Assembly: GCA_036517295.1 (NCBI GenBank)
Contig: DATDWZ010000008.1
Location: 304-64,303 of the forward strand
Direction of reading: 5' to 3'
Length of the DNA: 64,000 nucleotides
DNA from: Minisyncoccota bacterium
Lineage (GTDB): Bacteria; Patescibacteriota; Minisyncoccia; Phycocordibacterales; DATDWN01
The position numbers and the translations under genes were made by a program. Shown piece after piece: positions 1-21,325 of the stretch. How positions within the stretch are numbered: the stretch's first letter is position 1; every line of letters starts with the position of its first letter. The notes beneath the pieces were generated by a model. The model searched no databases, had not been told where the DNA came from, and was given only the letters and a program-made list of their open reading frames with translations.

Positions 1-240
1 GTTCGAACAATTCCTCGACCAGAGCCTTCGCGACCTCCGGAGTCCGCGCTTTAGAGCGCAGAGAATCTGTGAGCGACCGTTCTTCTTCAAGCAGCGTGCG
101 TTTACGGCTCTCGAAATCTTCCTTGTTGAGAGTGCCGTCAACGAACGCGTCGATGAGACGGGTCAACCGCATCTGTATCGCGCCGATTTGCGCTTGCAAA
201 TGTGACTTCCGCTCGTCCTCACTCGCGTCGTCCTGCCGCT
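1..240 (-). pseudogene. Fragment of a large serine recombinase coiled-coil region (partial, runs off window start)
   Basis: Minus-strand translation of 1..240 gives ...QRQDDASEDERKSHLQAQIGAIQMRLTRLIDAFVDGTLNKEDFESRKRTLLEEERSLTDSLRSKARTPEVAKALVEELFE. This heptad-like coiled coil is typical of the C-terminal part of large serine recombinases. Its N-terminal side would lie where the + strand fragment sits, so it is a remnant or rearranged. Confidence 0.35.
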
Positions 241-242
241 GA

Positions 243-730
243 ACGGAATACACCTGCCAGAAGTGTAAGAACAAGATTCCGGCCGCTGACCTCGAAACCG
301 TGTTCCGGGAACAGCTCAAGGAATTCTTCCTATCGTCCGAGGAGCTGACCAACTACCTCGAACAGGCCGACGAGAAGGTAGTGGAGAAGCGCGAACTCCT
401 GGGAACCCTGGAGACGGACCGAGCGACCGTCCAGGCCGAGATGGAGAAGGTCTACAAGCTCTACGTCTCGGACCAAATCAGCGCCGATGGGTTCGGCCGG
501 ACATACAAGCCGCTCGAAGAACGCCTCAAGGCGCTCGACGACCAGCTCCCCAGGCTCCAGGCCGAACTCGATTTCCTGCGCATCAAGAACCTCTCCCGTG
601 ACGAAATCGTAAGCGAGGCCCAGGACCTCTATGGCCGGTGGTCGGATCTCCTGCCGGAGGAGAAGCGCCAGATTATTGAGAACGTGGTCGACCGCATCAC
701 CATCGACCTTTCATACGTTCCCTCTCCCTC
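243..730 (+). pseudogene. C-terminal fragment of a large serine recombinase (zinc-ribbon CxxC plus coiled coil); N-terminus missing
   Basis: The frame opens right after an in-frame TGA at 240-242. It reads ..TCQKCKNKIPAADLETVFREQLKEFFLSSEELTNYLEQ...RLQAELDFLRIKNLSRDEIVSEAQDLYGRWSDLLPEEKRQIIENVVDRITID, the recombinase zinc-ribbon/coiled-coil tail. It is oriented head-to-head with the minus-strand fragment at 1..240. Confidence 0.45.
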
Positions 731-756
731 TGAAATAGCCACAAAAAGGCAACGCG

Positions 757-792
757 ACCACACCCCTGCGTTGCCTTTTTGTACGGCGACCA
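757..792 (+). terminator. Putative intrinsic terminator hairpin (aggcaacgc/gcgttgcct) followed by TTTTTGT
   Basis: 9-bp GC-rich inverted repeat with a 12-nt loop and a T-tract. It lies inside the six-frame ORF 300..1214, which argues that ORF is really two genes. Confidence 0.4.
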
Positions 793-1214
793 TGAGAACC
801 GAACGGAAGCCAGAGGGATATCCCAGTGTTCTCAATAACTTAGCGGACCATTTGAAGAAGAGAATCCTCGACCTCGGAACCAATCAGAAAGAGGCGGCGA
901 GGCAGATTGGCGTCGGGACCGGGAGCTTCACGCATTGGATGAGAAAACACCGCAACCCGACCATTCGTCGCTGGCCGAAGGTCATCCAGTTCCTTGGATA
1001 CGACCCACGGCAGGCGTCGGAGGGCATCGGACAGGGCCTCGTTCGATGGCGACAGGGCAGAGGGATGTCACAGAAGGAATTGGCGGCGCAGCTCGACGTT
1101 GACCCGACCACGCTGGCCAAGTGGGAGCGTGGTGAACGTTGTCCGTCGGGCGACCGCCAGATGCAATGCACCATGCTCCTGTGCAATCTAGGCTTTCCGC
1201 GATTGCATCTGTAA
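792..1214 (+). CDS. Tandem helix-turn-helix (XRE-like) DNA-binding protein
   Basis: Starts at ATG 792, after the hairpin. There are two XRE-like HTH motifs: KKRILDLGTNQKEAARQIGVGTGSFTHWMRK and RWRQGRGMSQKELAAQLDVDPTTLAKWERGE. High GC. Confidence 0.45.
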   Translation: MRTERKPEGYPSVLNNLADHLKKRILDLGTNQKEAARQIGVGTGSFTHWMRKHRNPTIRRWPKVIQFLGYDPRQASEGIGQGLVRWRQGRGMSQKELAAQLDVDPTTLAKWERGERCPSGDRQMQCTMLLCNLGFPRLHL

Positions 1215-1321
1215 GCAGTTGACAATAAAGGACTTAGGAGGTACTCTAGTATTAGAAATCGTCTCGTCGGTAGGAGGAAGCGTTCCTTTTTCGAACGTTT
1301 CCTCGCTGCCTAGGAGGCGAC

Positions 1322-1525
1322 ATGCAGGACAAAGCGCAAGACTGCCTTCGATTTGAAGAACTACTTCGGCGTCTGGAACTCACAGACGACGAGGTCGATT
1401 TCTGCCTCAACCATCCGGGGGCGTGCGCGATTGGCGTACACACCCGAGAGGCTCAGACTCGGACCAGAAACGCCTTGCTGAGGTGGGTCGAAAGTCTCGG
1501 TCAACGGAGAGAACGGACCACGTAA
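1322..1525 (+). CDS. Small hypothetical protein (67 aa) with strong SD
   Basis: AGGAGG sits 7 nt upstream of ATG 1322. A terminator hairpin with T-tract lies at 1549..1572. Confidence 0.45.
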   Translation: MQDKAQDCLRFEELLRRLELTDDEVDFCLNHPGACAIGVHTREAQTRTRNALLRWVESLGQRRERTT

Positions 1526-1548
1526 CTTGCCACCGGCAGGTCCTGAAA

Positions 1549-1572
1549 GCCACCATTGCGGTGGCTTTTTTG
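1549..1572 (+). terminator. Intrinsic terminator gccacc-ATTGC-ggtggc + TTTTTT
   Basis: Perfect 6-bp GC stem, 5-nt loop, U-tract. Confidence 0.55.
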
Positions 1573-1669
1573 TGCTCTCGCGTCCCTACATCTTGCCAAA
1601 TAGACGAGACTTACCGGCGGCAGCCAAAAAAGATTCCCACGCTCGTCCAGGCCGGCCGAATATCCTTCC

Positions 1670-2806
1670 GTGAACGCCGCGCACTGTGCCATGGATGAAC
1701 ACAGCGAGCCACAGTTCAGGGACCTTGAGGAAGTCTTCGCGACCGGCGAGGACCAGGCGGCTGAGATCGCCCTCGAAAAGCTGCTTGAAATCCATGGACA
1801 CCGCGTCCGCCATTTTCTTTACAACGTCACGGATGTGGATGGCGCACATGAAGAGATATACGGAGACGCTTACGCGCAGGCGATCGACGACACGACCACG
1901 AACCAAATCACCAAGAAGAGTACCGAGCTAACGAAGAAGGTCATCACAGACAAGCTCAGACGCAGCTTCCAGGACGAACTGGTCGGCCTGGAATTCACCC
2001 ACCTCGCGGTTGAGATCCAGGCAGCGGGCGGCGCGAAGGGTGCGCTCCTTCACAAGCTGGCTTTCAGTAATGCTCCTGGCGTCACCGTCACAGATGTTCT
2101 CAGCGAGGGCGAATCGCGGGCCCTGTCCCTTGCGGCGTTCTTGACCGAATTAAGCACGGCCCCGACAAAGGCCGGGATCATATTCGACGATCCTGTGTCC
2201 TCATTGGATCACGTCTGGCGGGAGCGGATTGCCAAACGACTCGTGGCGGAAGCGAAGGACCGCCAGGTCATCGTCTTCACGCACGACCTGTTTTTTCTTC
2301 GAAGTCTGCTCGCAACATGCGACAGAGAATCTGTTCCGCTTCAACATCAGTACGTTCGCCGCGATGGCCAGGCTGGCATCTGCTCACCTGACCTCCCGTG
2401 GGTCGCGATGAACGTGAAGAGCAGAATTGGCGTCCTCCGACAGCGCTGGCAGGCGGCCGACAAGCTCCAGAGAACCGTGGGAAACCAAGCGTACGAGCCT
2501 GCTGCCCGCGAAATATTTGGTCTGCTTCGCGAGGCCTGGGAGCGTGGCGTGACCGAAGTCCTGCTCAATGACGTCGTCGAGCGTTACCGCCCTGCAATTG
2601 AAACGAAGAAGGTCGCGATTCTGCACGACATCACGAATGCGGACTGCAAGGCAGTTGATGATGGGATGGCAGAGTGCTCGCGGTGGATGCGTGGACATGA
2701 CGAGTCGATGGCAGACGGGACGCCGTTTCCGACGCCGGCACAGCTTAAGACAAGGATCGACGAACTTGAGGGCTGGGCAAAGGGCATTCGAGCCAAACGG
2801 ACCTGA
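1670..2806 (+). pseudogene. 5'-truncated PrrC/RloC-like ABC-type ATPase with C-terminal HEPN-like domain (no Walker A)
   Basis: ABC signature LSEGESRAL, Walker B IIFDDPVSSLD (D-loop) and H-loop VIVFTHDLFF are present. There is no GxxxxGK[ST] anywhere in the 378 aa. The C-terminal domain contains SRWMRGH (an Rx4H HEPN-type motif). The fold assignment is an inference. Confidence 0.45.
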
Positions 2807-2925
2807 GTCGACGGGTGGCACTGGCCGCACATCAGGCTGCTTCGCCACGGCCTGCTAGGCCATGCCGTGGTCAGCTTGCCGTCGTGATGGCCGCGTGAAG
2901 ATTGTTCAGGCGTTCAAAGCCGCAT

Positions 2926-4074
2926 TTACTGCCAAGGCCACGCGCCTTTTGCGGCGAACCCGAGAAGCACAGCCGCGGCTCCCCAAAGTACCGCCCTGTT
3001 ATGGACAAGTCTCAGGCTCACGGGGTCGTGTGTGGCGCGCACTAGAATGGGCAACACTGCGCGGTCGACCACAAGTACCACAGCCATCACTAGAGTTCCG
3101 AATGGGATTAGGGTTACGTAAAGATTCGATTCCGCTGCTATCGAAAGTGGAGCAGCAAGGAACTCGACAACGCCCGAAGGTATGGGCAGCACACCATTCA
3201 TGGCGAGCATCAGGGGAATGCGCGGCAGGATGTTCAGGGCGACAAGTAGACCAAGACTTGAGACGATTAGGCCGAATGCTCGCCACCTGCTCGATCTCGA
3301 TGCTCGCGTGAGAATCCGTCGAAAGACAGCGATGACTGCGAAATCTGCAAGGGCTCCGATGAGCCAGCCAGGAAGAAGTGGAAGTAGGACCGCAGGCGAG
3401 GTTACGAAAACATACTTTGTGGTGCTCGTAGGCTGTGAGCCGACCTCGATAGTGAACCAGCCGCCGATGTGGACCGCGAATGGGGAAAACAACGGTGAGA
3501 ACGACGCAAATAGAGTCAAGCAGATTAAGAGAGCCAAGGTCAGATTCTGAAGCGCCCTGGCGATGATTAGCCAGAACCGTCTTGTGGCAAAGACAGTCAC
3601 AACAAACGTCGAGGCGAGTATCGCCCCGGCCGCGCTGAGGAAGAGCCCGGCGACCTTCGCTGATGCTCTGGTGATCTCGCTTTGCACTATGCCGCGCAGA
3701 AATTGAAGGGGCTCGCCGTCTGTGAAATCATCCGGCGACAATAAGAACGCAATAGCGTACAAACCAACACCTTCTGTGACGAGCACTGACGACAGTGACA
3801 GAAGGAGCGCGGCATTGAAGGCGCGTCGAGACCATATGGTTGGGCCATAGACCTTATTGAGGAGGAGCGTTCCTATCGAGGCAAAGCCACGCATCCAACC
3901 TAAGTGACGGTTCGTTGTTGTTGCGCGGACTTCGGCAAGTCGGAGCCACCAAGTCTCCAGCGAGCTTTGGAGGACGCCTCGTTCGTCTGGGAACATGAAT
4001 AGGGCGATGTAAATCAGCAATAAAGCTGCACATAGTGCGAGACCCCGAAGAACGACCTCGGCTACGAGCAGCAT
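2926..4074 (-). CDS. Polytopic integral membrane protein, function unknown
   Basis: 382 aa with about 10 hydrophobic segments. High GC. No recognisable motif. Confidence 0.55.
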   Translation of the reverse strand: MLLVAEVVLRGLALCAALLLIYIALFMFPDERGVLQSSLETWWLRLAEVRATTTNRHLGWMRGFASIGTLLLNKVYGPTIWSRRAFNAALLLSLSSVLVTEGVGLYAIAFLLSPDDFTDGEPLQFLRGIVQSEITRASAKVAGLFLSAAGAILASTFVVTVFATRRFWLIIARALQNLTLALLICLTLFASFSPLFSPFAVHIGGWFTIEVGSQPTSTTKYVFVTSPAVLLPLLPGWLIGALADFAVIAVFRRILTRASRSSRWRAFGLIVSSLGLLVALNILPRIPLMLAMNGVLPIPSGVVEFLAAPLSIAAESNLYVTLIPFGTLVMAVVLVVDRAVLPILVRATHDPVSLRLVHNRAVLWGAAAVLLGFAAKGAWPWQ

Positions 4075-4696
4075 GGCTTTATTTCAATGAAAGGAAAGTG
4101 CACGAGTCCGGCCCGACGCAGAGAATACATCAGTCGCCTCAGGCAATCAGACTTTCCACGCCGGGGCGCCAGTGGTGGGCGGCTCCGGGCAATGGAGTTA
4201 AGCACGAGCGCACCGGCGCATCTCGGTGCACTTCTCTCTTCGCCCATTCCCAGGGTTCTCTCGCGATGCGTTTGACTTCGTCGATGGAAAGATCAGACAC
4301 CGGTTGACTGGTGTTCATGATGGTGGTGGGTTAGCTGATATGCCGCCAGCAGCATCCTGAATCGTACCGCCAGACCGCGATCTGTCACCAATTCCTGGCC
4401 GCTGAAGCTCCTTCTTGGCCCAGTCGAGGAGAGCGCGAGCTTGTACGTTCAATTCCTCGGTGTCATACTGGACGGATGAATTGGTCGAATCGGTTCGAGC
4501 CCTGTCCTGAAGACGGTCACAATCTTACGGAGTAAAAAAGTCACGGGAGTTGAAGCCTGTTTGAGATATTTTTAGAGTGAAACGAATAAAAATATCCAAA
4601 CACGGGGACTGACCGAGTAGCGGTCAACTCCCGGTAAGGTCACAAAGAGAAACTTCGGCAGAAGTGAGCGAAAAAATGGGTATATTTTCTGATGCT

Positions 4697-7600
4697 TTAT
4701 GGCACAATCCGAACAGAGTCTTTGGCTTGGAATAAGGCTCCGCTCTTGGTCTTACCATTCAATACTCCAGCAGTATCCTGGGCCTGGAAATTACTGACCT
4801 TGGTTGAGAAGTGACAAATCAAATCTTTCCTTCCGTCATTATTAACATCTTCACCATTAGAATTGCAGAGACTTAGGGACTTTTCATCACCGACATGGCC
4901 GAAAGTAAGAGAAGAAAGATCAATTTGAGTTAGGGCGTTGAAATTAACCGAGGAAAGAATCGCTACAGGAATCTTGCCACTACTTTTTGGATTAATTGGA
5001 TTCGGAAAACTGCCGGGCTTGATGTCAATTTTTACGACAATATCTTCTGGCGGGGTTTCAACAGGTTCGGTAATGACGAATGGTGAAAGAGAATTAGCAA
5101 CTCCGCAAATTATTTTATTTACCTTATCTGGATAACCCGATTTGGTTATGTCCACCCAGCTCGTACCGTCAAAATGCCTTAATTTAAGATTATTTTCATT
5201 TTGATAATTTACTCCTGCATAACTAAAGCAGACTTCAACGGGTGGAGTGTAGATGGCGGTAGTACTGATATCATAATAAATTGCCGGATTCCCTAACTTA
5301 AACTGTGTCGGCAAAGCCGGTCCAGCCGAACTAGTAGTAACCGTCGTTATGCCACCAGTTAAAACATTTGAGAATGTCACATTTACATTTGAATCAAGAG
5401 CAACAGAAACACCAGCGCCTGTTTCAGTATAACCCGGCGGTAATGGAAGCACCTGAACTTGCTGAGTTGCTTGGGCCGAATTACCAGCTTGATCTTGCGC
5501 CATCCAAATAACCACAGTGATTCCGATTGGAAATATGGCTGGAGCATTATTTGTCACCGTTGGATTTGGATCAATGTTGTCCGAAACAACTGGGATCCCG
5601 AGAACAACACCACTGGCACCGGCTGAACTTGTAGCCGGTACAACTACATCTTGAGGAGCTATGATGGTTGGCGACTCCGTATCTGCTGGCGGAATATACG
5701 ATACCGTTACAGTAAATGAAGCATTTGCTATATTTCCAGCAGCATCACTAGCTGAACAATTAACCGTATTTTGACCAATTGGAAATGTAGAGCCGGATGC
5801 AGGACTGCAGGAAAAACTAATTACGCCAACATTATCCGTGGCCGAAGCGTCATAATTAACTATGACGCCCTCGGGCGAAACAGCTTCAACGGTGATTGGC
5901 GCTGGTACTGTAATCGTTGGGGCTATGGTGTCTGCCGGAACTGTCCCGCAACTTATGCCGTTTTGATAACGCTGCTCTATTTCGGATGATGTAAGAGCAC
6001 GATTATAGATTTCCACCTCGTCCAGCAGTCCTGGAAATGGCTGAATTTGGGTATCAAAATTACCCAGTGTAAAGTTTGAGTTGAACACGAAGCCGGGGTT
6101 ATAGGAAATAACGGGTGTTCCCCCGCGCTGTGCTCCGGCCGCTATGCCGTCAAGATAAAAAGTCACTGTACCGCCACTTTTGGTGACAGCCACATGGTGC
6201 CATCCTGTGTCATTTACAGAGAGAGGAGCAGCAACCATGTCGAAACCGGGTTTGTCCAAGCTGAGTTGCCGAACCGCGGTCGCCCCATTAGTATTCACGA
6301 CGCTTGGGCCAGACAAGAAGAATCCGTAACCGCCGATCCCATATCCCGCGATTCTTTCGGCAAAGCCGTCAATAGACAAAGTATTGAGTTTGATCCAGGC
6401 ATCAATGGTAAAATCCTGGAAGCGAAGATTGACTGGATTGCCGATAAGTACTTTATCATCCACACCATCAAAACTAAACGCCTGGCCAACTTGTCCTGAC
6501 GCAAATGTAGCGCCACCTTGTAATGTCCCATTATTTACGCCGACAGCATCATTTGCATTTCCCTCGCCGGACCACTCACTAACTATTCCGGACAATGGAA
6601 CAACGCATGCCCCTACCACTCTCGGCACCACAGCAATGCCGTGCGGGCTACTGCCAAAACTTGCCAAAACTGTCGCCACTCCTGTGGTTGGATTCAGTTT
6701 AATAACAGCCCCCGGCTCATTACACGGATCATCGACTAAGAGATTGCCGGAATTATCAAATGCTATTCCTGTCGGACAAACAAATGGACCACCCGAAGCA
6801 ATCACCGTTTGCGCTCCTGTTGTGGGATTGACTTTAATTACCTTACCAATATTGTCAGACACAAAAATATCACCGTTAGGAGCAACCACGACACCTACCG
6901 GATCAACAAAATTTCCACCCGACGAAACCACAGTCCAGGCACCGGTTGCGGGATTGACGCGGATTATTCCCCCAAGTTGTCCGAAACCACTTACATCGGC
7001 CACCAGAACATCCCCATTAGGAGCAACTGTTAGGTAATACGGTCCTGCATTTTGGTCTGTGCTAACATAGACCGGTGTTTGTACTCCTGTTATTGGATTA
7101 ACTTTAATAACTCCGCCATAATAATTGAAGGCGTCGCTATCGGCCACAAATATATCACCGTTGGCGGCTACTGCCACGCCACGGGGATCAACAAAATATT
7201 GTCCCTGTGAGACTACCGTTTGGACTCCATTTGTTGGATTTATTTTAAATACGGCTCCACCTAAACTAAATGCTTGAGGATCACCGACAATAAGATTTCC
7301 GTCTCCATCAATAGCAACTCCCATTGGTTCTTCAAGATCAGGACCTGAATAAACCGCTTTTTGATTTCCTAAAAAATCAAAATGATAAATACCGCCCTGA
7401 TCGGAGGGAGCACTCGGGTCAGCGATAAACATATCACCGGGGATTAATGGCGTGGTCTGAGGAGAAACACTTTCAATAACTAATTTAGGTCTTAATGAAG
7501 CTGTGCCATAATCTGAAGAAGCAATTGTGTTAAGCCAAACACCCCCATCCCAAGTAGATCCTAACCTAGTAAACCCGATTCCGTGGTTTGTAATCGTTCC

Positions 7601-8176
7601 ATTTTTCCAACCATTATATAAATCTGTAATATCAACGGATACCCATTGATCATGTCCACTTTCATTTAACGCGCTAGGTGAAGCCGGAATATTCAATGTA
7701 CCATAAGACCCACCTAAAGTCGGACGATTATTCCAAGTTGCGCTCATTTCATCCCAAGATGAAGTAATACTATTAACGGTCCAACTCATTGCGGGGCACG
7801 AGCCGCCACCACAATTAGCAGTTGAATATAAATACAGCTTGGCAGATACTATGTCGCTAGGCAAAGTTGAAACATCAAATTTCAATATTGGATAACCGTT
7901 ATAGCTAGCGTAGTAATCAAAAATCAATTCGGATCTTGTTCCAAAATTCAGACCCGACCCAAGGTCTACATCGGTATCGCCATATCTAGTAAAACTAACA
8001 TAATTATCCTTTCCTCCAGATACAGTACCCTCATCCGTTCCATTATTCAAACCGCTGGATGGTTGAAAGACGATTTCAGAATTAGGCGCCGCCTGAGAAA
8101 TTGTAATGAGGCTAAAATTAAAAATTAAAACGCTTACAATTATACCAACTTTAAAACTAAAAAGTTTATATTTCAT
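4697..8176 (-). CDS. Large secreted cell-surface protein: signal peptide, DNRLRE-like domain, NHL/SMP-30-like beta-propeller repeats, LamG/concanavalin-like domain, HYR-like domains
   Basis: N-terminal MKYKLFSFKVGIIVSVLIFNFSLITISQA. Repeated GDIFVADS../GNLLVDD.. NHL-like blades. LDEVEIYNRALTSSEIEQRY LamG motif. PTITVPAPITVEAVSPEGV..NASFTVTV HYR-like. ILKFDVSTLPSDIVSAKLYLY DNRLRE-like. Confidence 0.85.
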   Translation of the reverse strand: MKYKLFSFKVGIIVSVLIFNFSLITISQAAPNSEIVFQPSSGLNNGTDEGTVSGGKDNYVSFTRYGDTDVDLGSGLNFGTRSELIFDYYASYNGYPILKFDVSTLPSDIVSAKLYLYSTANCGGGSCPAMSWTVNSITSSWDEMSATWNNRPTLGGSYGTLNIPASPSALNESGHDQWVSVDITDLYNGWKNGTITNHGIGFTRLGSTWDGGVWLNTIASSDYGTASLRPKLVIESVSPQTTPLIPGDMFIADPSAPSDQGGIYHFDFLGNQKAVYSGPDLEEPMGVAIDGDGNLIVGDPQAFSLGGAVFKINPTNGVQTVVSQGQYFVDPRGVAVAANGDIFVADSDAFNYYGGVIKVNPITGVQTPVYVSTDQNAGPYYLTVAPNGDVLVADVSGFGQLGGIIRVNPATGAWTVVSSGGNFVDPVGVVVAPNGDIFVSDNIGKVIKVNPTTGAQTVIASGGPFVCPTGIAFDNSGNLLVDDPCNEPGAVIKLNPTTGVATVLASFGSSPHGIAVVPRVVGACVVPLSGIVSEWSGEGNANDAVGVNNGTLQGGATFASGQVGQAFSFDGVDDKVLIGNPVNLRFQDFTIDAWIKLNTLSIDGFAERIAGYGIGGYGFFLSGPSVVNTNGATAVRQLSLDKPGFDMVAAPLSVNDTGWHHVAVTKSGGTVTFYLDGIAAGAQRGGTPVISYNPGFVFNSNFTLGNFDTQIQPFPGLLDEVEIYNRALTSSEIEQRYQNGISCGTVPADTIAPTITVPAPITVEAVSPEGVIVNYDASATDNVGVISFSCSPASGSTFPIGQNTVNCSASDAAGNIANASFTVTVSYIPPADTESPTIIAPQDVVVPATSSAGASGVVLGIPVVSDNIDPNPTVTNNAPAIFPIGITVVIWMAQDQAGNSAQATQQVQVLPLPPGYTETGAGVSVALDSNVNVTFSNVLTGGITTVTTSSAGPALPTQFKLGNPAIYYDISTTAIYTPPVEVCFSYAGVNYQNENNLKLRHFDGTSWVDITKSGYPDKVNKIICGVANSLSPFVITEPVETPPEDIVVKIDIKPGSFPNPINPKSSGKIPVAILSSVNFNALTQIDLSSLTFGHVGDEKSLSLCNSNGEDVNNDGRKDLICHFSTKVSNFQAQDTAGVLNGKTKSGALFQAKDSVRIVP

Positions 8177-8626: not shown

Positions 8627-10069
8627 CTAGAAATGCAAGTTCACCGGATCCTGCGACTCGTCCTGCCGTCTGGCATAGTTCAGAGTGTCAAGGAAATCTG
8701 GCAGGTTCCCAAAGCCCCTCTTGAACCGATACAACAGATGGATGAGCTTCTGCTTCGGTTCACTGCCTTGTGGTGAGATGCGCCAGTGGTTGCTGGCTAC
8801 ACGAAGCGCGCGACTGACCATCTCTTCCGAATCCTGTCCGTTCGGCACGGCGTTCCTGAGTCGCGCTTGACTCAAGTTGACATGAGGTTGCCCTTTCGAG
8901 AAGAACAGGGCGTCCAGAACCTGTCGCGCAAGTTTCAGGTCCTCATCCGTGACTGGCGCAGAAGTCGGTGGAAGCCGCTTCTTCACAGTCATCTTCTCCG
9001 AAGCCGAAGGTTTTGGTGTGGCCGCCACCGACCTCGTTGGCGGAGGCGGAGCAGGTTTTGGAGTCGGTATTTTCGTAACCAGCTTTTGTTCCGGAATCTC
9101 GATCTTGGCCAAACCGGTCGAGACTTGGGGTCTCGAAGAAGTCGGTTCCGTCAGTGCCACCTTCAGTTGATTGAGGCGAACGACACACTGCTCGATCTCG
9201 GTCGCCATGAGAGCCAGATCCTTCGGGTCGCGCCTCTGAATTGCGACCAGAGTGGGAGGTGATAGAAGAACGTCCACTCCTTCCTGTGTTCTCTGGACAT
9301 ACCGCCGCATTGACCTGAGATAGTCCGCAATCAAGTGTGGTCTTTTGGCGTTGCCCACTTGCACACCCGCCTCTTCGGCCATCTGTCTGGCCTGAACACG
9401 CGCCTGATTGATGTTCAGTCTTTTGGTCACCACCATCCTTGCAATTTCCATCTGCAAGTCGTGGTGGAGGCCGGAGATGAACACACCAAGCGTATGGCTG
9501 AGTCGGTCTTCTTCCGAAATAGTCGGCGACATCATCGCCTGAACTTCTGGATGAAGCCGGAGAAGCGCGAGATGAGAGTACACCCAGGGTTCAGACCGAG
9601 CGAAAATCTTGGCGATTTTCGCAATCTGTTCACCGGGTGAGAAACTCTCCATTCGCTTTGACTTCCTGATACGGTTGATGGCTTGAGAGATTTCCAGAGG
9701 TGTGTGACTGGACCTGCCGAAGTTGCCGACCACCGACGCGACGAACTGTTCGTCGCTATCTTTAATTGGGCGCACCCAGGCAAGCATGGTATCCACCCCG
9801 GCCATACCGCAGGCAATCCACCGACGTTCACCGTCAACAAGCTCGTACTTGTGTTTCGGGTCGCCAATGACTGCTTTAACCACAATCGGGGTTTGCTGTC
9901 CGATTTCCTCGATGCTTGCAGCCAGGTCGTTCATGTCCTTGGCATCGAAGAAGTTGCGAGGCTGGTCGGTGAAACGCCGGATTTGGTTCCGGAGAATACG
10001 CTCAACCTTGCTGACTTCCGAACCGAGAACGCTAAAACCCGCTTCTGCTTGCTCTTGTGTGGTGGCCAT
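8627..10069 (-). CDS. ParB/Srx-domain (ParB-like nuclease/partition) protein with Pro-rich linker and C-terminal extension
   Basis: N-terminal QQTPIVVKAVIGDPKHKYELVDGERRWIACGMAGVDTMLAWVR (ParB N-domain GERR motif). SD AAGGAG 7 nt upstream. GC about 55%, unlike the flanks. Confidence 0.7.
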   Translation of the reverse strand: MATTQEQAEAGFSVLGSEVSKVERILRNQIRRFTDQPRNFFDAKDMNDLAASIEEIGQQTPIVVKAVIGDPKHKYELVDGERRWIACGMAGVDTMLAWVRPIKDSDEQFVASVVGNFGRSSHTPLEISQAINRIRKSKRMESFSPGEQIAKIAKIFARSEPWVYSHLALLRLHPEVQAMMSPTISEEDRLSHTLGVFISGLHHDLQMEIARMVVTKRLNINQARVQARQMAEEAGVQVGNAKRPHLIADYLRSMRRYVQRTQEGVDVLLSPPTLVAIQRRDPKDLALMATEIEQCVVRLNQLKVALTEPTSSRPQVSTGLAKIEIPEQKLVTKIPTPKPAPPPPTRSVAATPKPSASEKMTVKKRLPPTSAPVTDEDLKLARQVLDALFFSKGQPHVNLSQARLRNAVPNGQDSEEMVSRALRVASNHWRISPQGSEPKQKLIHLLYRFKRGFGNLPDFLDTLNYARRQDESQDPVNLHF

Positions 10070-15916: not shown

Positions 15917-17812
15917 TTATTTAAACAATTCCAATCCTTTGGTTAATTCATCCACTTCAGACTTTGGACCAAATATAAGGAGCCCAAGAAAATCAATGTC
16001 TTTTACATCCTTCGCTTTCGTCCATTCAACCACTTTGTTATCACTTGTTGTTTCTATCATCTCTTTTGTAAAGTGAGCAATTTCCAATCCCCTTTCTTGG
16101 GCCAAGTCCGATAGTCTCCAGATATCCTCCGAACTTCCGGCGGTCTTTATCATGATTGCGTGTCGGATATTCAATCTTATATTTTTATTGTCTTGAGTTT
16201 TTATGGAATCGAATTTAAAAAGATTATTTTTCGACCGTGCGCCAAAAGCCACACCGAGATGAGCGATGGTATTTGCAACCTTCCAGGGTTCCAGATTCAA
16301 CCCTTTATTTATTATGGCTGTCACGACCCAAGTCGCCTTATCTTTCTTTTTTATTTCCTCCAGAGGTCTCATCAGCGGGAAAGCTTGCAGTTCGCGAAGT
16401 GGTTTATCCGCCAGAAAAGCAAAGAGTCTCTCGCCGAAACCGAACCCACAGGTGGGAGGCATACCGTGTTCCAGCATTTCCACAAATTCATCATCCTGCA
16501 TCATGGCCTCCGTATCGCCGGCATCTATCAACCTCTGTTGAGCCTCAAATCTCTGTTTTTGATCAATCGGATCATTCAACTCGGAATAACCGTTCCCGAC
16601 TTCACTGCCGGCAATAATCGGCTGAAATCTTTGGGCGGTTTTTATATTATCCGGGTTCGCTTTTGACAGTGGTGCAACCAGAGTCGGATGGTTTATGAGA
16701 AAGGCCGGGCCGGAAATCTGCCTACGGCAATATTTCCATAAGGTATCCGTCAGCCTCTCCTTATTGTCTCCTTCATACTTTACACCGAGCTCATCCAATT
16801 TCTTTTTCATATCACCTTCGCTCGCGGTTAACAAATCAATGTTGGTCATTTCTTTCACTTTTGAAACATAGTCTATTTTTTTCCATTCATCGGCCAAATC
16901 GAAAGAGTGTCCGTGAGTGGTAAACTTTGTAGTACCAAAAACTTTTTTGGCAATCTCAATATACATTTCCCGCACCAATTCCATACCATCGTTATAATCG
17001 GCAAAGGACCAGTAAAATTCCATGTTCGTAAATTCTTGAGCGTGCTCGGGAGAAGTCCCCTCATTCCGATATGCCTTTCCTATCTCAAAAGTCTTTGGGA
17101 AGCCACCGGCCATAAGTCTCTTCTGCCACAATTCGCCTATCGATATGCGTAAATAAACATCGAGGTCATAATCGTTGTGGTGTGTTCTGAATGGAGTGGC
17201 CTCCGCGCCTCCAGTGGTGGTTTCAAGAGTCGGGGTCTCAACTTCGAGAAACCCTTTGCTCTTCATAAACTCCCGAGTTACATCCCAGAATTTGGATTTT
17301 TTTACTATCAAATCGCGTAACTCGCCGTTCATTAAAAAATCCAGGTATCGCTTTCTATACCTTTCATCAACATCCTGTAATCCGTGCCATTTTTCCGGTA
17401 ACGGCAGGATGGACTTACAGGCCATGACCCAAGAATTAACTATGATACTTTGTTCGCCTGTTTTAGAAACCGCAGGAACGCCGGTAATAGAAATAAAATC
17501 TCCAACATCGATGGTGTCCGTAAATAAAGAAAAATTATCGACCTTTATTTCATCCTTTTTTACAATAGCCTGAATCCTTTCCGTTCCATCAAAAAGCACG
17601 GCAAAAAGTATGGCCCCCTGGCCACGCAGAGCCATTACTCTTCCGGCTACAGAAACCGGTTTGCCCGATTTACTCCTTGTATCAAATTCGGATTTTAAAA
17701 TAGATATCGGAAAATCTCGTGGGACTTTTGCCGGATATGGGTTTATACCTTTACTTTTCAGTATTTCAAGCTTTTGTAATCGCGCTTGCCTTATTTCTTC
17801 TAGTGAGGCCAT
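15917..17812 (-). CDS. lysS: Lysine--tRNA ligase (class II) with ~140-aa C-terminal PTH2/DUF2000-like domain
   Basis: Class II LysRS core (anticodon-binding OB fold, then motifs through ...GMPPTCGFGFGERL). The C-terminal extension TWVVTAIINKGLNLEPWKVANTIAHLGVAFGA...LLIFGPKSEVDELTKGLELFK resembles the peptidyl-tRNA hydrolase PTH2 fold (VIVVRTDL...AQ..HA ... AIGP...VTG.LKLL). Confidence 0.85.
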   Translation of the reverse strand: MASLEEIRQARLQKLEILKSKGINPYPAKVPRDFPISILKSEFDTRSKSGKPVSVAGRVMALRGQGAILFAVLFDGTERIQAIVKKDEIKVDNFSLFTDTIDVGDFISITGVPAVSKTGEQSIIVNSWVMACKSILPLPEKWHGLQDVDERYRKRYLDFLMNGELRDLIVKKSKFWDVTREFMKSKGFLEVETPTLETTTGGAEATPFRTHHNDYDLDVYLRISIGELWQKRLMAGGFPKTFEIGKAYRNEGTSPEHAQEFTNMEFYWSFADYNDGMELVREMYIEIAKKVFGTTKFTTHGHSFDLADEWKKIDYVSKVKEMTNIDLLTASEGDMKKKLDELGVKYEGDNKERLTDTLWKYCRRQISGPAFLINHPTLVAPLSKANPDNIKTAQRFQPIIAGSEVGNGYSELNDPIDQKQRFEAQQRLIDAGDTEAMMQDDEFVEMLEHGMPPTCGFGFGERLFAFLADKPLRELQAFPLMRPLEEIKKKDKATWVVTAIINKGLNLEPWKVANTIAHLGVAFGARSKNNLFKFDSIKTQDNKNIRLNIRHAIMIKTAGSSEDIWRLSDLAQERGLEIAHFTKEMIETTSDNKVVEWTKAKDVKDIDFLGLLIFGPKSEVDELTKGLELFK

Positions 17813-19585: not shown

Positions 19586-21325
19586 CTATTTTAGATACTC
19601 GTTGGCGTAAACAGCTATCCAATTAAAAAACTCCTGCATAACCAGTACCGCACCGAATTGATTGTTTTTTGAACCCCTTTCCATAACCACGGCATAAGCA
19701 TATTTTGGATCTTTGTATGGCCAAAAACCGACCACCCAAGAATTGACTAGGTCTTTACTGACACCCAGTTGAGCCGTACCGGTCTTTGAAACAATCTCTA
19801 CAAATGGGAAATTGATGGCTCCAGATGTCCCTTCGGTCACACCAAGTCTCATCCCCTCTTTTATTATGGTGTAAAAGTCAGGGTTAAGATCTATTTTGCC
19901 GGAAGACATCCCAACATTTGTTTTTAAAAATGTTGGTACGAGTAAAGTCCCTTCGTTGGCGATAGCGGCTACGGCTCTGACAACCTGGATCGGTGATGTT
20001 TGAAAACCGTATTGTCCTATCGCCGTGTTATATGTGTCCCCCACTCTCCAAACCTCCCCTTTGAAATTCTTAGCCTTCCAACTGGGACTTGGTATGATGC
20101 CGTCTTCCTCTCCCGGAAAATAAATACCAGTGGTACTTCCAAAACCGAACATCCGTGTATATTTTTCTATGTTCGCTATTCCTATACCTTTTTGACCTTC
20201 ATATCCACCGGTAACTTCATAAAAATAAACGTTGGAAGAAACGGCTATAGCATGCCGTAAATCAACATAGCCGTGAGCTTTCCAATCTAAAAATATCGAT
20301 GGTTTGTCGGGGAAAAACGGGTTTGGTACAGATATGGAACCGGTAGAAAGAATCTGTTTTGTGGGAGAAATAATATTCTGATCCAAAGCCCCTATAGCCA
20401 TAAAGAGTTTCATTATTGAGCCGGGGGTATAAAGACCGCCCACGACACGGTTTAGGAATGGGTAATTGGTTGAAACAACCCAAGAAGATATTCTTTTTTG
20501 ATCAGCCCCGTCGGTCATGGTCTGTGAATCGTATTCGGGGAAATTACTACTGGCCAATATCTCACCGGTATGCACATTCATAATAACCCCCGCCCCTCCT
20601 TTGTAACCGGCCCTGTCCGCTATATCTAGCAAAGCGTTGTGTAGTTCTCTTTGTAAATCAATATCGATTGATAAATCAATATTGTCGCCATCAACAGGAA
20701 GCTGGATAATACTTTCTCCAACAACATTACCCTTAACATCGGTTTCTATTATCTTTGTGCCATTGGAACCGCTAATTTCTCCGTCGTATATTTTTTCTAT
20801 ACCGTCTTTCGGATCAAATTTATCCTGATAATAAAATCCGTTGGAATCCTTTGTGGGATATTTAATATAACCCAGAACCGTCGAGAGTCCTGTTGATGTA
20901 GCATATACTCTTAAAGAAAAATCCGTAGAGTTCGGATTTATATTGTTCCAGACCAGGGGCACCTTGTTCCTGTCGTATATTATCCCACGGTCTGCATAGA
21001 CCAGAGTCTTGTGTAGACTATTGTTGTCACTCCTGTTACGAAAATTTGCTCCTTGAATGATTTCAAGATTGGATAATTTATATACAAAAATAAGACCAAC
21101 ACAAAAAATAAAAAGGGTGATGAAACTTTTAACACTGTGTGGAATCGGTTTTTCTATGCGTCCCTCAAACTGATTAGTATCGAAGTTCGGTAAGTTTTTT
21201 GAATCAAGAAAAATTTCATCCGGATCAATGTCGTGGTTAGTGTTACGGGACCGTCTTTTAAATATTTTCTTTATTTGGTGGAACATGACTTTATCTCCTG
21301 ATTTGTGTTTTAGTAAAATAAACAA
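19586..21325 (-). CDS. mrdA: Penicillin-binding protein 2 (elongasome transpeptidase, MrdA-type)
   Basis: SIMKLF (SxxK), SSN and KTGTAQ motifs. Immediately downstream of mreB-mreC-mreD. Confidence 0.85.
   Translation of the reverse strand: MFILLKHKSGDKVMFHQIKKIFKRRSRNTNHDIDPDEIFLDSKNLPNFDTNQFEGRIEKPIPHSVKSFITLFIFCVGLIFVYKLSNLEIIQGANFRNRSDNNSLHKTLVYADRGIIYDRNKVPLVWNNINPNSTDFSLRVYATSTGLSTVLGYIKYPTKDSNGFYYQDKFDPKDGIEKIYDGEISGSNGTKIIETDVKGNVVGESIIQLPVDGDNIDLSIDIDLQRELHNALLDIADRAGYKGGAGVIMNVHTGEILASSNFPEYDSQTMTDGADQKRISSWVVSTNYPFLNRVVGGLYTPGSIMKLFMAIGALDQNIISPTKQILSTGSISVPNPFFPDKPSIFLDWKAHGYVDLRHAIAVSSNVYFYEVTGGYEGQKGIGIANIEKYTRMFGFGSTTGIYFPGEEDGIIPSPSWKAKNFKGEVWRVGDTYNTAIGQYGFQTSPIQVVRAVAAIANEGTLLVPTFLKTNVGMSSGKIDLNPDFYTIIKEGMRLGVTEGTSGAINFPFVEIVSKTGTAQLGVSKDLVNSWVVGFWPYKDPKYAYAVVMERGSKNNQFGAVLVMQEFFNWIAVYANEYLK

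Follow-up and report, generated by a model that had tools for sequence, protein, structure and literature searches.

A 4.8-kb high-GC genomic island, very probably decayed, in the tRNA-Glu(CTC) gene of a Paceibacterota genome

How did some 4.6 kb of high-GC DNA come to lie at the start of a contig from a reduced Patescibacteria genome of much lower GC content, and what is it? The contig, DATDWZ010000008.1, belongs to assembly GCA_036517295.1 (Minisyncoccota bacterium), and we analysed its positions 304 to 64,303 (64,000 nt, here called the window; coordinates are those of the window, negative ones lying to the left of its first nucleotide). A preliminary description of the sequence had offered two possibilities: the decayed edge of an integrative element or defence island, or the end of a chimeric contig. 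We find that the block is a discrete foreign insertion at a tRNA-Glu(CTC) gene, bounded by attachment (att) repeats and absent from a co-occurring strain. Very probably, positions 1–4645 and about 160 nt further to the left together make up a 4.8-kb genomic island of high-GC origin, now decayed, in the genome of a member of the Paceibacterota.

Insertion at a tRNA-Glu(CTC) gene

The GC content is 0.570 over positions 1–4623, as against 0.409 over 4646–64000. Measured in 400-nt segments it stays at 0.54–0.61 up to about 4400 and has come down to 0.39–0.47 by 4800, and GC at third codon positions (GC3) is 0.60–0.78 in the open reading frames (ORFs) of the block, compared with 0.34–0.39 in the adjacent genes for MurE, a penicillin-binding protein (PBP) and a 1159-aa protein. 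The compositional boundary that had been described is therefore borne out, the break falling at 4624–4645, slightly to the right of the 4300–4600 first suggested; the elements that had been listed for the block are likewise all present in the sequence (Table 1).

The break lies exactly at one copy of a perfect 22-bp direct repeat, TCAACTCCCGGTAAGGTCACAA (22/22 nt), found at 4624–4645 and again at −181 to −160, a distance of 4805 bp; the chance expectation of the repeat at 4625–4644 is 0.00. The left copy, just outside the window, is the 3′ end of a tRNA-Glu(CTC) gene, recognised by ARAGORN in two contigs (L002 and L004) and ending at −162. Leftward of position 1, four contigs (L002, L004, L006 and L104) continue with about 160 nt more of the island and then enter the tRNA gene, beyond which three of them (L002, L004 and L104) carry chromosomal genes for DAGK, HhH-GPD, YqeY, RmuC and ribosomal protein L21. 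An empty site is found in L011, a Logan contig from SRR2090155: 99.9% identical to the window from 11533 to 4624, it then passes straight into the same tRNA, so that the tRNA is fused directly to position 4646 onward and no island is present. The island-free strain differs from the window by single-nucleotide polymorphisms (SNPs) at 4647, 4662, 4678 and 4703. Exact-pattern scans of genome_contigs and metagenome_contigs for attR with its flank gave no match, in part because of such strain SNPs beside the repeat. The attP sequence of the island can be reconstructed as …GAGTAGCGG-TCAACTCCCGGTAAGGTCACAA-TCAGCGACG….

Might the block nevertheless be an assembly chimera, in which a high-GC contig was joined to a Paceibacterota contig? 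The step in GC is sharp, the block stands at the start of the window, and five MEGAHIT (k141) contigs all stop at 4883, within the 3′ end of the gene for the 1159-aa protein. However, these stops are 238 nt inside host DNA and away from the GC break; the junction duplicates 22 bp of the 3′ end of the adjacent tRNA; and an empty site exists. Moreover, the block occurs in assemblies of three kinds (MEGAHIT k141 contigs, Logan contigs and 'ANAN16' metagenome scaffolds) from several samples, with both junctions identical among them. At least ten contigs cross the island junctions, three of which (L003, L009 and L010) span the right junction and reach 3–13 kb into the chromosome, and the contigs L001–L010 and L100–L109, found by exact-protein look-ups, are 99.96–100% identical to the window. 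As far as assemblies can show, a misjoin is excluded, and we give the chimera virtually no credence. The shared stop at 4883 suggests another sequence variant in the population; the SNPs of the island-free strain explain it incompletely, since the last of them (4703) predicts a stop at about 4843.

Thus, of the two possibilities raised at the outset, the chimeric contig end is not supported, both junctions recurring in independent assemblies and the boundary being an att site, and the decayed integrative element holds good: the block targets a tRNA, has att repeats, is missing from an empty site, and contains recombinases only as remnants. It is not the edge of a larger element, since the whole of a small island is present.

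Table 1. Features of the island, in window coordinates
Feature	Position	Strand	Remarks
LSR-1, 3′ remnant of a large serine recombinase gene	1..253, on to about −179	−	Identified by phmmer; coiled-coil/C-terminal region
LSR-2, 3′ third of a large serine recombinase gene	249..740	+	Second CxxC of zinc ribbon (CQKC), coiled coil, C-terminal region
Perfect palindrome ACAAAAAGGCAACGC-N12-GCGTTGCCTTTTTGT	741..782	.	attP-like site of LSR-2 family
Tandem helix-turn-helix (HTH; XRE-type) regulator	792..1214	+	Pfam HTH_3, two stretches
67-aa ORF	1322..1525	+	Annotated as a gene in several assemblies; without match in Pfam or NCBIfam
Terminator-like hairpin and T-run	1545..1572	+	Just downstream of 67-aa ORF; ΔG −16.7 kcal/mol, z −3.3
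PDC-S06 (AAA_13-type, SMC/Rad50-like) ABC ATPase, 3′ remnant	1868..2806	+	PADLOC PDLC04891
382-aa multi-pass membrane protein	2926..4074	−	About 8–10 hydrophobic segments; codon periodicity
59-aa ORF	4139..4318	−	No family match; coding status doubtful
Right arm of island	4319..4623		No ORF of at least 50 aa; GC declines toward att site
attR, right island boundary	4624..4645	+	22-bp repeat of tRNA-Glu(CTC) 3′ end

The island also occurs with a second left-hand neighbour. In L001/L008, L005 and L098, its left end is joined, at a GGTCACA core, to an AT-rich element (27–38% GC) of about 7 kb. This element (L008 1–7737) encodes an intact 515-aa serine recombinase, a DUF4145 protein, three proteins of 266–269 aa and an Excalibur-domain protein, and has on its far side a different tRNA-Glu(CTC), with about ten differences. 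L001/L008 and L005 carry the window's own right flank, including the alleles of the island strain; L098 ends about 126 nt inside the island and shows the left junction only. This second context looks like the tandem accretion of an intact element beside one that lacks an integrase, or it may reflect a rearrangement, either in the same genome or in another species.

The cargo of the island

An ATPase gene had been described as 5′-truncated and devoid of Walker A, and so it is. Residues 66–377 of ORF 1670..2806 match positions 546–857/858 of the PADLOC profile PDLC04891 (312 residues; E-value 9.2e-105), placing the protein in PDC-S06, a family of Pfam AAA_13/AAA_21 type. The first 66 codons (1670–1867) are unrelated sequence, homology to the homologue P0010 beginning abruptly at residue 67. 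What follows contains LSEGE, IIFDDPVSSLD and VFTHD (the signature, Walker B, D-loop and H-loop) and the helical, family-specific C-terminal domain, and keeps the columns that are invariant in a 47-sequence alignment of the family. Profile positions 1–545 are absent; they comprise the Walker A lobe, the domain at the N terminus and a region in which longer homologues carry a CxxC pair. Over all frames of 1–5000, tblastn found neither the Walker A/N-lobe nor any other missing part of the family. PDC-S06 is not a family that naturally lacks Walker A: GDNAAGKT is present in L014, within profile positions 7–223. The truncation therefore stands, and only the last 36% of the gene remains. The common 600-aa homologues (P0010, P0015, P0027 and P0070) were considered as a natural Walker-A-less form, and this is contradicted by three loci. 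L014 has the Walker A lobe directly upstream but in a different frame, indicating a frameshift; in L012 there is an adjacent IS21 together with an N-terminal remnant without Walker A; and in L015 the homologue begins at the edge of the contig. A further locus, L013, has a lone 314-aa ORF with no N-lobe upstream.

Could the remnants nevertheless be alive, with the ATPase half, the HTH regulator and the membrane protein acting together as a small working unit, for instance in defence or as a toxin? Their ORFs are open and 100% conserved across samples, the motifs and invariant residues of the C-terminal half of the ATPase family are intact, the structure model of the ATPase is confident (predicted local distance difference test, pLDDT, 83–87), and databases contain many short members of the family. 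On the other hand, identity across samples reflects recent common origin and not selection; the short database forms that were inspected (L012–L015) show decay or start with the contig; the ATPase ORF begins with its 66 unrelated codons; and the membrane protein has no relatives that could show co-occurrence. The structure model (pLDDT 83.5) superposes on the C-terminal chains of split SMC/Rad50 heads, and a head of SMC/Rad50 type requires a separate N-terminal segment bearing Walker A. Lacking that lobe, the modelled remnant would be unable to form an ATP site by itself. We thus consider a functional module very improbable, and prefer to regard these genes as debris within a decayed island.

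The ATPase had also been likened to PrrC/RloC, with a C-terminal HEPN-like domain. Its identification as an ABC ATPase stands, with PDC-S06 as the best family; its membership of PrrC/RloC or HEPN is not demonstrated: the match to PrrC covers only the ATPase core (E-value 0.0018), and the C-terminal fold is a generic four-helix bundle. There are resemblances. Like PrrC/RloC, the remnant combines an ABC-type ATPase with a helical domain at the C terminus, in which Arg, Glu and His are conserved (R-x3-E, and a His that is invariant); it has an Rx4H-like RWMRGH near its C terminus, and its longer homologues have a CxxC upstream of the signature, features that are like the PrrC/RloC motifs. RWMRGH fits Rx4H, and its His is invariant in the 47-sequence alignment; the first Arg is conserved in fewer than 90% of the sequences. 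Among the longer homologues inspected, P0023 has T at this position, and P0015 and P0016 have SRWMHDE.

The role of PDC-S06 in defence is itself no more than a prediction (bioRxiv 10.1101/2025.01.08.631966). Genes of PDC-S06 type very often appear in the records as ORFs that are short at the N terminus (293–640 aa), even on long contigs, and the 314-aa copy of L013 lies beside McrBC genes and a pair of OLD-TOPRIM and UvrD-helicase genes that resembles Gabija. Remnants of defence genes, such as this 3′ part of a PDC-S06 gene, can pass for 'Walker-A-less' ATPases.

The head-to-head recombinase fragments noted in the preliminary description are real, and meet at about 245–253. LSR-1, the left-hand one, is discussed in the next section. 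LSR-2 is 72–79% identical to residues ~322–495 of recombinases of 505–520 aa (P0122 and P0128), has a 7-codon deletion relative to its homologues, and shows homology only from YTCQKC (nt 249) onward; an apparent tblastn extension to nt 174 crosses a stop codon with few identities, and was taken as chance. The two fragments cover overlapping regions of a recombinase, so they come from two genes and not from an inversion within one. PF00239 (resolvase) and PF07508 (recombinase) domains were found in neither fragment by Pfam scan.

Directly after LSR-2 comes a palindrome, a perfect 15-nt inverted repeat (741–755/768–782; ΔG −27.9 kcal/mol, z −6.9), which also looks like a bidirectional terminator. 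An internal terminator hairpin had been predicted for the block, and both this one and that at about 1545–1572 were found. A consensus terminator scan listed neither of these strong hairpins, its six matches lying within shuffle expectation, and no Rfam family matched anywhere in 1–5000. The form GGCAACGC-N12-GCGTTGCC, with a C-rich 12-nt spacer, is kept in two other contigs, L096 (at ~8910) and L097 (at ~930), in which the proteins at the palindrome are 42–47% identical to those of the window; the LSR-2-type copy in L096 is decayed (an in-frame stop and a 5′ truncation) and that in L097 is cut by the end of the contig. Two further contigs, L099 (11478) and L112 (11424), have stand-alone LSR-2 homologues and share with the window the left arm and the first 7–8 nt of the spacer. 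Past the centre of the spacer, each continues into an antisense comM gene (Mg-chelatase family), truncated at its VAAMNPCG codons, and the recombinase ORF reads across. The simplest reading of these alignments is that the LSR-2 family would integrate into comM, with the crossover in the spacer, and that the window, L096 and L097 would represent the unrecombined attP form. (When viral contigs were scanned for the palindrome, a phage-like contig yielded two matches, both unrelated and due to chance, and that lead was dropped.)

The most interesting loose end of the locus is that this attP-like palindrome lies inside a reading frame. ORF 300..1214 joins the tail of LSR-2 in frame, with no stop, through the palindrome to the HTH gene (HTH_3, PF01381; E-value 3.1e-18, 66 bits against a cutoff of 23). 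A frameshift or a sequencing problem had been suspected here. The sequence is the same in about ten assemblies, and the read-through recurs, with differing lengths of linker, in five homologues of 36–65% identity (P0124, P0125, P0157 and P0181 among them), so the suspicion can be set aside; the read-through may be translated. The ORF is perhaps a relic of the design of comM elements, in which the excised (attP) form would yield a fusion of integrase and regulator, and integration into comM would cut off the tail and leave the HTH gene at the opposite end of the element. We put this forward tentatively, and think it less probable than not. If it is true, the proteins made by comM-targeting elements would depend on their state of integration. 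The integration-dependent immunity of some mycobacteriophages is loosely comparable to such an integration-dependent integrase–HTH fusion.

The large membrane protein that had been described is encoded by ORF 4074..2926. It had no match in Pfam, NCBIfam or PADLOC, and found only itself among 5.8 billion proteins. The cargo is thus a patchwork, made up of a comM-type fragment in apparent attP form, the 3′ 36% of an ATPase gene, a small ORF and an orphan membrane protein.

The integrase and the history of the island

Which recombinase brought the island to its site? LSR-1 is a candidate by position. Its ORF runs about 180 nt to the left of the window, ends …ADCDLTGS*, and has its stop codon inside the att repeat, that is, in the 3′ end of the tRNA-Glu gene (L002). 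Pfam and NCBIfam scans gave no match, and LSR-1 was identified only by an exhaustive phmmer search of 1.84 billion representatives, which yielded 55 matches; its long relatives (P0256, P0262 and P0273; 504–533 aa) have Resolvase, Recombinase and Zn_ribbon_recom domains and were matched at about aa 306–414. The minus-strand fragment corresponds to the coiled coil that follows the zinc ribbon (about aa 355–410), and its periodicity of GC over the three codon positions is consistent with coding. Only the coiled coil is retained, the catalytic, recombinase and zinc-ribbon domains having gone. BLASTP found no similarity of LSR-1 to LSR-2, to P0122 or to the intact 515-aa recombinase of the AT-rich element in L008 (LSR_A).

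That intact recombinase ends …VTLRGIEPRFKP* antisense to another tRNA-Glu(CTC) (L008 759–798), and an intact recombinase of L096 (505 aa), with the tail …APRGVEPLFAP*, ends in a third tRNA-Glu(CTC) (L096 15879–15919). With the island (about −179 to −160), there are therefore three tRNA-Glu(CTC) genes in whose antisense strand a serine recombinase ORF terminates. Since this convergent layout recurs, LSR-1 is the most likely candidate for the original integrase of the island. In the two intact genes the recombinase ORF runs past the crossover into the host tRNA, and wherever this is so the C terminus of the protein would change with the state of integration. (An 8-nt motif, TCGCAAAT, is common to the gene ends of LSR-1 and LSR_A; its spacing from the core differs, 19 and 22 nt, and it was not used as evidence.)

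The history of the island may be pictured as follows. Through site-specific recombination, a high-GC element carrying LSR-1 would have entered the 3′ end of tRNA-Glu(CTC). Pieces of a comM-type element and a defence gene would have accumulated in it, whether earlier or later than this. Later deletions would have taken the 5′ parts of both recombinase genes; had the two genes been divergently oriented, a single illegitimate deletion between them would suffice to produce the head-to-head remnants. Most of the ATPase gene would also have been deleted, leaving att sites without a recombinase. As it has no intact recombinase, the island would be unable to move on its own.

Several points weigh against this account. 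The evidence for insertion is at the level of assembled contigs and not of reads; the island is 100% identical in its second left-hand context (L008, L005 and L098), which the proposed history does not fully explain; and we infer, rather than observe, that the remnants no longer function. Three further points concern LSR-1. The 22-bp perfect repeat, which takes in the tRNA between its T-loop and its 3′ end, is a feature seen more typically with tyrosine integrases than with serine ones; LSR-1 has no BLASTP similarity to the intact recombinase associated with tRNA-Glu in L008; and its frame at the tRNA is one nucleotide off the frame that gives the tail shared by the L008 and L096 recombinases, so that the island's counterpart of that tail, …VTLPGVEPGFQP*, is present only in a reading frame other than that of LSR-1. 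Does the island, then, owe its integration to a tyrosine integrase, the gene for which was later deleted, both serine recombinase fragments being mere cargo or debris? A block of identity at the 3′ end of a tRNA, here reaching from the T-loop to just past that end, is the classical shape for islands of tyrosine integrases, and the lack of detectable similarity between LSR-1 and LSR_A is in keeping with this idea. However, Pfam scans of the ORFs in 1–4645 revealed no fragment of a tyrosine recombinase, and three loci at which a serine recombinase ORF converges on tRNA-Glu(CTC) would be unexpected unless recombinases of this type use the site. We therefore think a lost tyrosine integrase unlikely, and retain LSR-1 as the most likely integrase.

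Related elements and chromosomal surroundings

The island is of a familiar kind, an ordinary tRNA-targeted element, and leaves the known workings of such islands unchanged. It shares with other tRNA-integrated islands the site at the 3′ end of the tRNA, the flanking direct repeat, the foreign composition, and presence or absence among co-occurring strains. In the tycheposons of Prochlorococcus, most recombinases are tyrosine recombinases and a minority are large serine recombinases (bioRxiv 10.1101/2020.12.28.424599). The present island differs from tRNA islands and tycheposons of that sort in having a Patescibacteria host, Acidobacteriota-like genes, and no intact recombinase, replication gene or recognisable adaptive cargo. 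It also resembles elements of the CIME (cis-mobilizable element) type, having att sites and no integrase of its own, and apparently standing in tandem with an intact element at the same site (L008, L005 and L098); mobilization in trans is putative. Finally, the arrangement of the LSR-2 homologues in L099 and L112, which abut a truncated comM, recalls large serine recombinase elements that target conserved genes and whose att site is where the recombinase gene has its 3′ end; unlike comM-integrated elements, the window has only the last third of the recombinase, the palindromic attP-like site and an HTH region in frame, all of it inside another island.

The host part of the window encodes MraW, two PBPs, MurE, MreB and aminoacyl-tRNA synthetases. 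Among the last is a 631-aa class II synthetase of aspartyl/lysyl type (ORF 15917–17812), which is 76–83% identical to proteins of metagenome-assembled genomes from Paceibacterota, Zambryskibacteria and other Patescibacteria, and the NCBI entry for ORF 300..1214 also carries the name Candidatus Paceibacterota. The best named relatives of the ATPase remnant and of LSR-2, by contrast, are from Acidobacteriota (Sulfotelmatobacter, Thermoanaerobaculia, Acidobacteriales and 'Acidobacteriota bacterium'), at 67–74% identity. The locus is thus a case of acquisition between phyla in a reduced genome of groundwater Patescibacteria, polymorphic within one aquifer population. In practical terms, the contig is sound, and binning should not discard the high-GC beginning of the window as a contaminant.

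The site of the island, between tRNA-Glu(CTC) and a large surface-protein gene, is near the cell-division (dcw) cluster. In related Patescibacteria (L016, at 19669–19741; L021; L022), a tRNA-Glu(CTC) gene is found a few kilobases downstream of the cluster of synthetase and cell-division genes, so that the landing site is syntenic across the group. The tRNA-Glu(CTC) beside the cell-division cluster is a recurrent landing site for serine-recombinase elements.

Other genes near the integration site deserve brief mention. Adjoining it is the gene (4697–8176, minus strand) for the 1159-aa protein mentioned above, which is secreted and has CBM96, Laminin_G_3 and HYR domains and a faint NHL match. 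Between MurE and the tRNA lies a gene for a 480-aa ParB_N-domain protein (8627–10069, minus strand), with 55% GC and a GC3 of 0.63 in a chromosome of about 40% GC; it is also present in the island-free strain (L011), and looks like a second, older foreign gene. On the left side, about 3.5 kb past tRNA-Glu, a 917-aa protein (L002 8282–11035) resembles a type IV secretion coupling protein (DUF8128, TraG-D_C), and its gene may be part of another mobile element.

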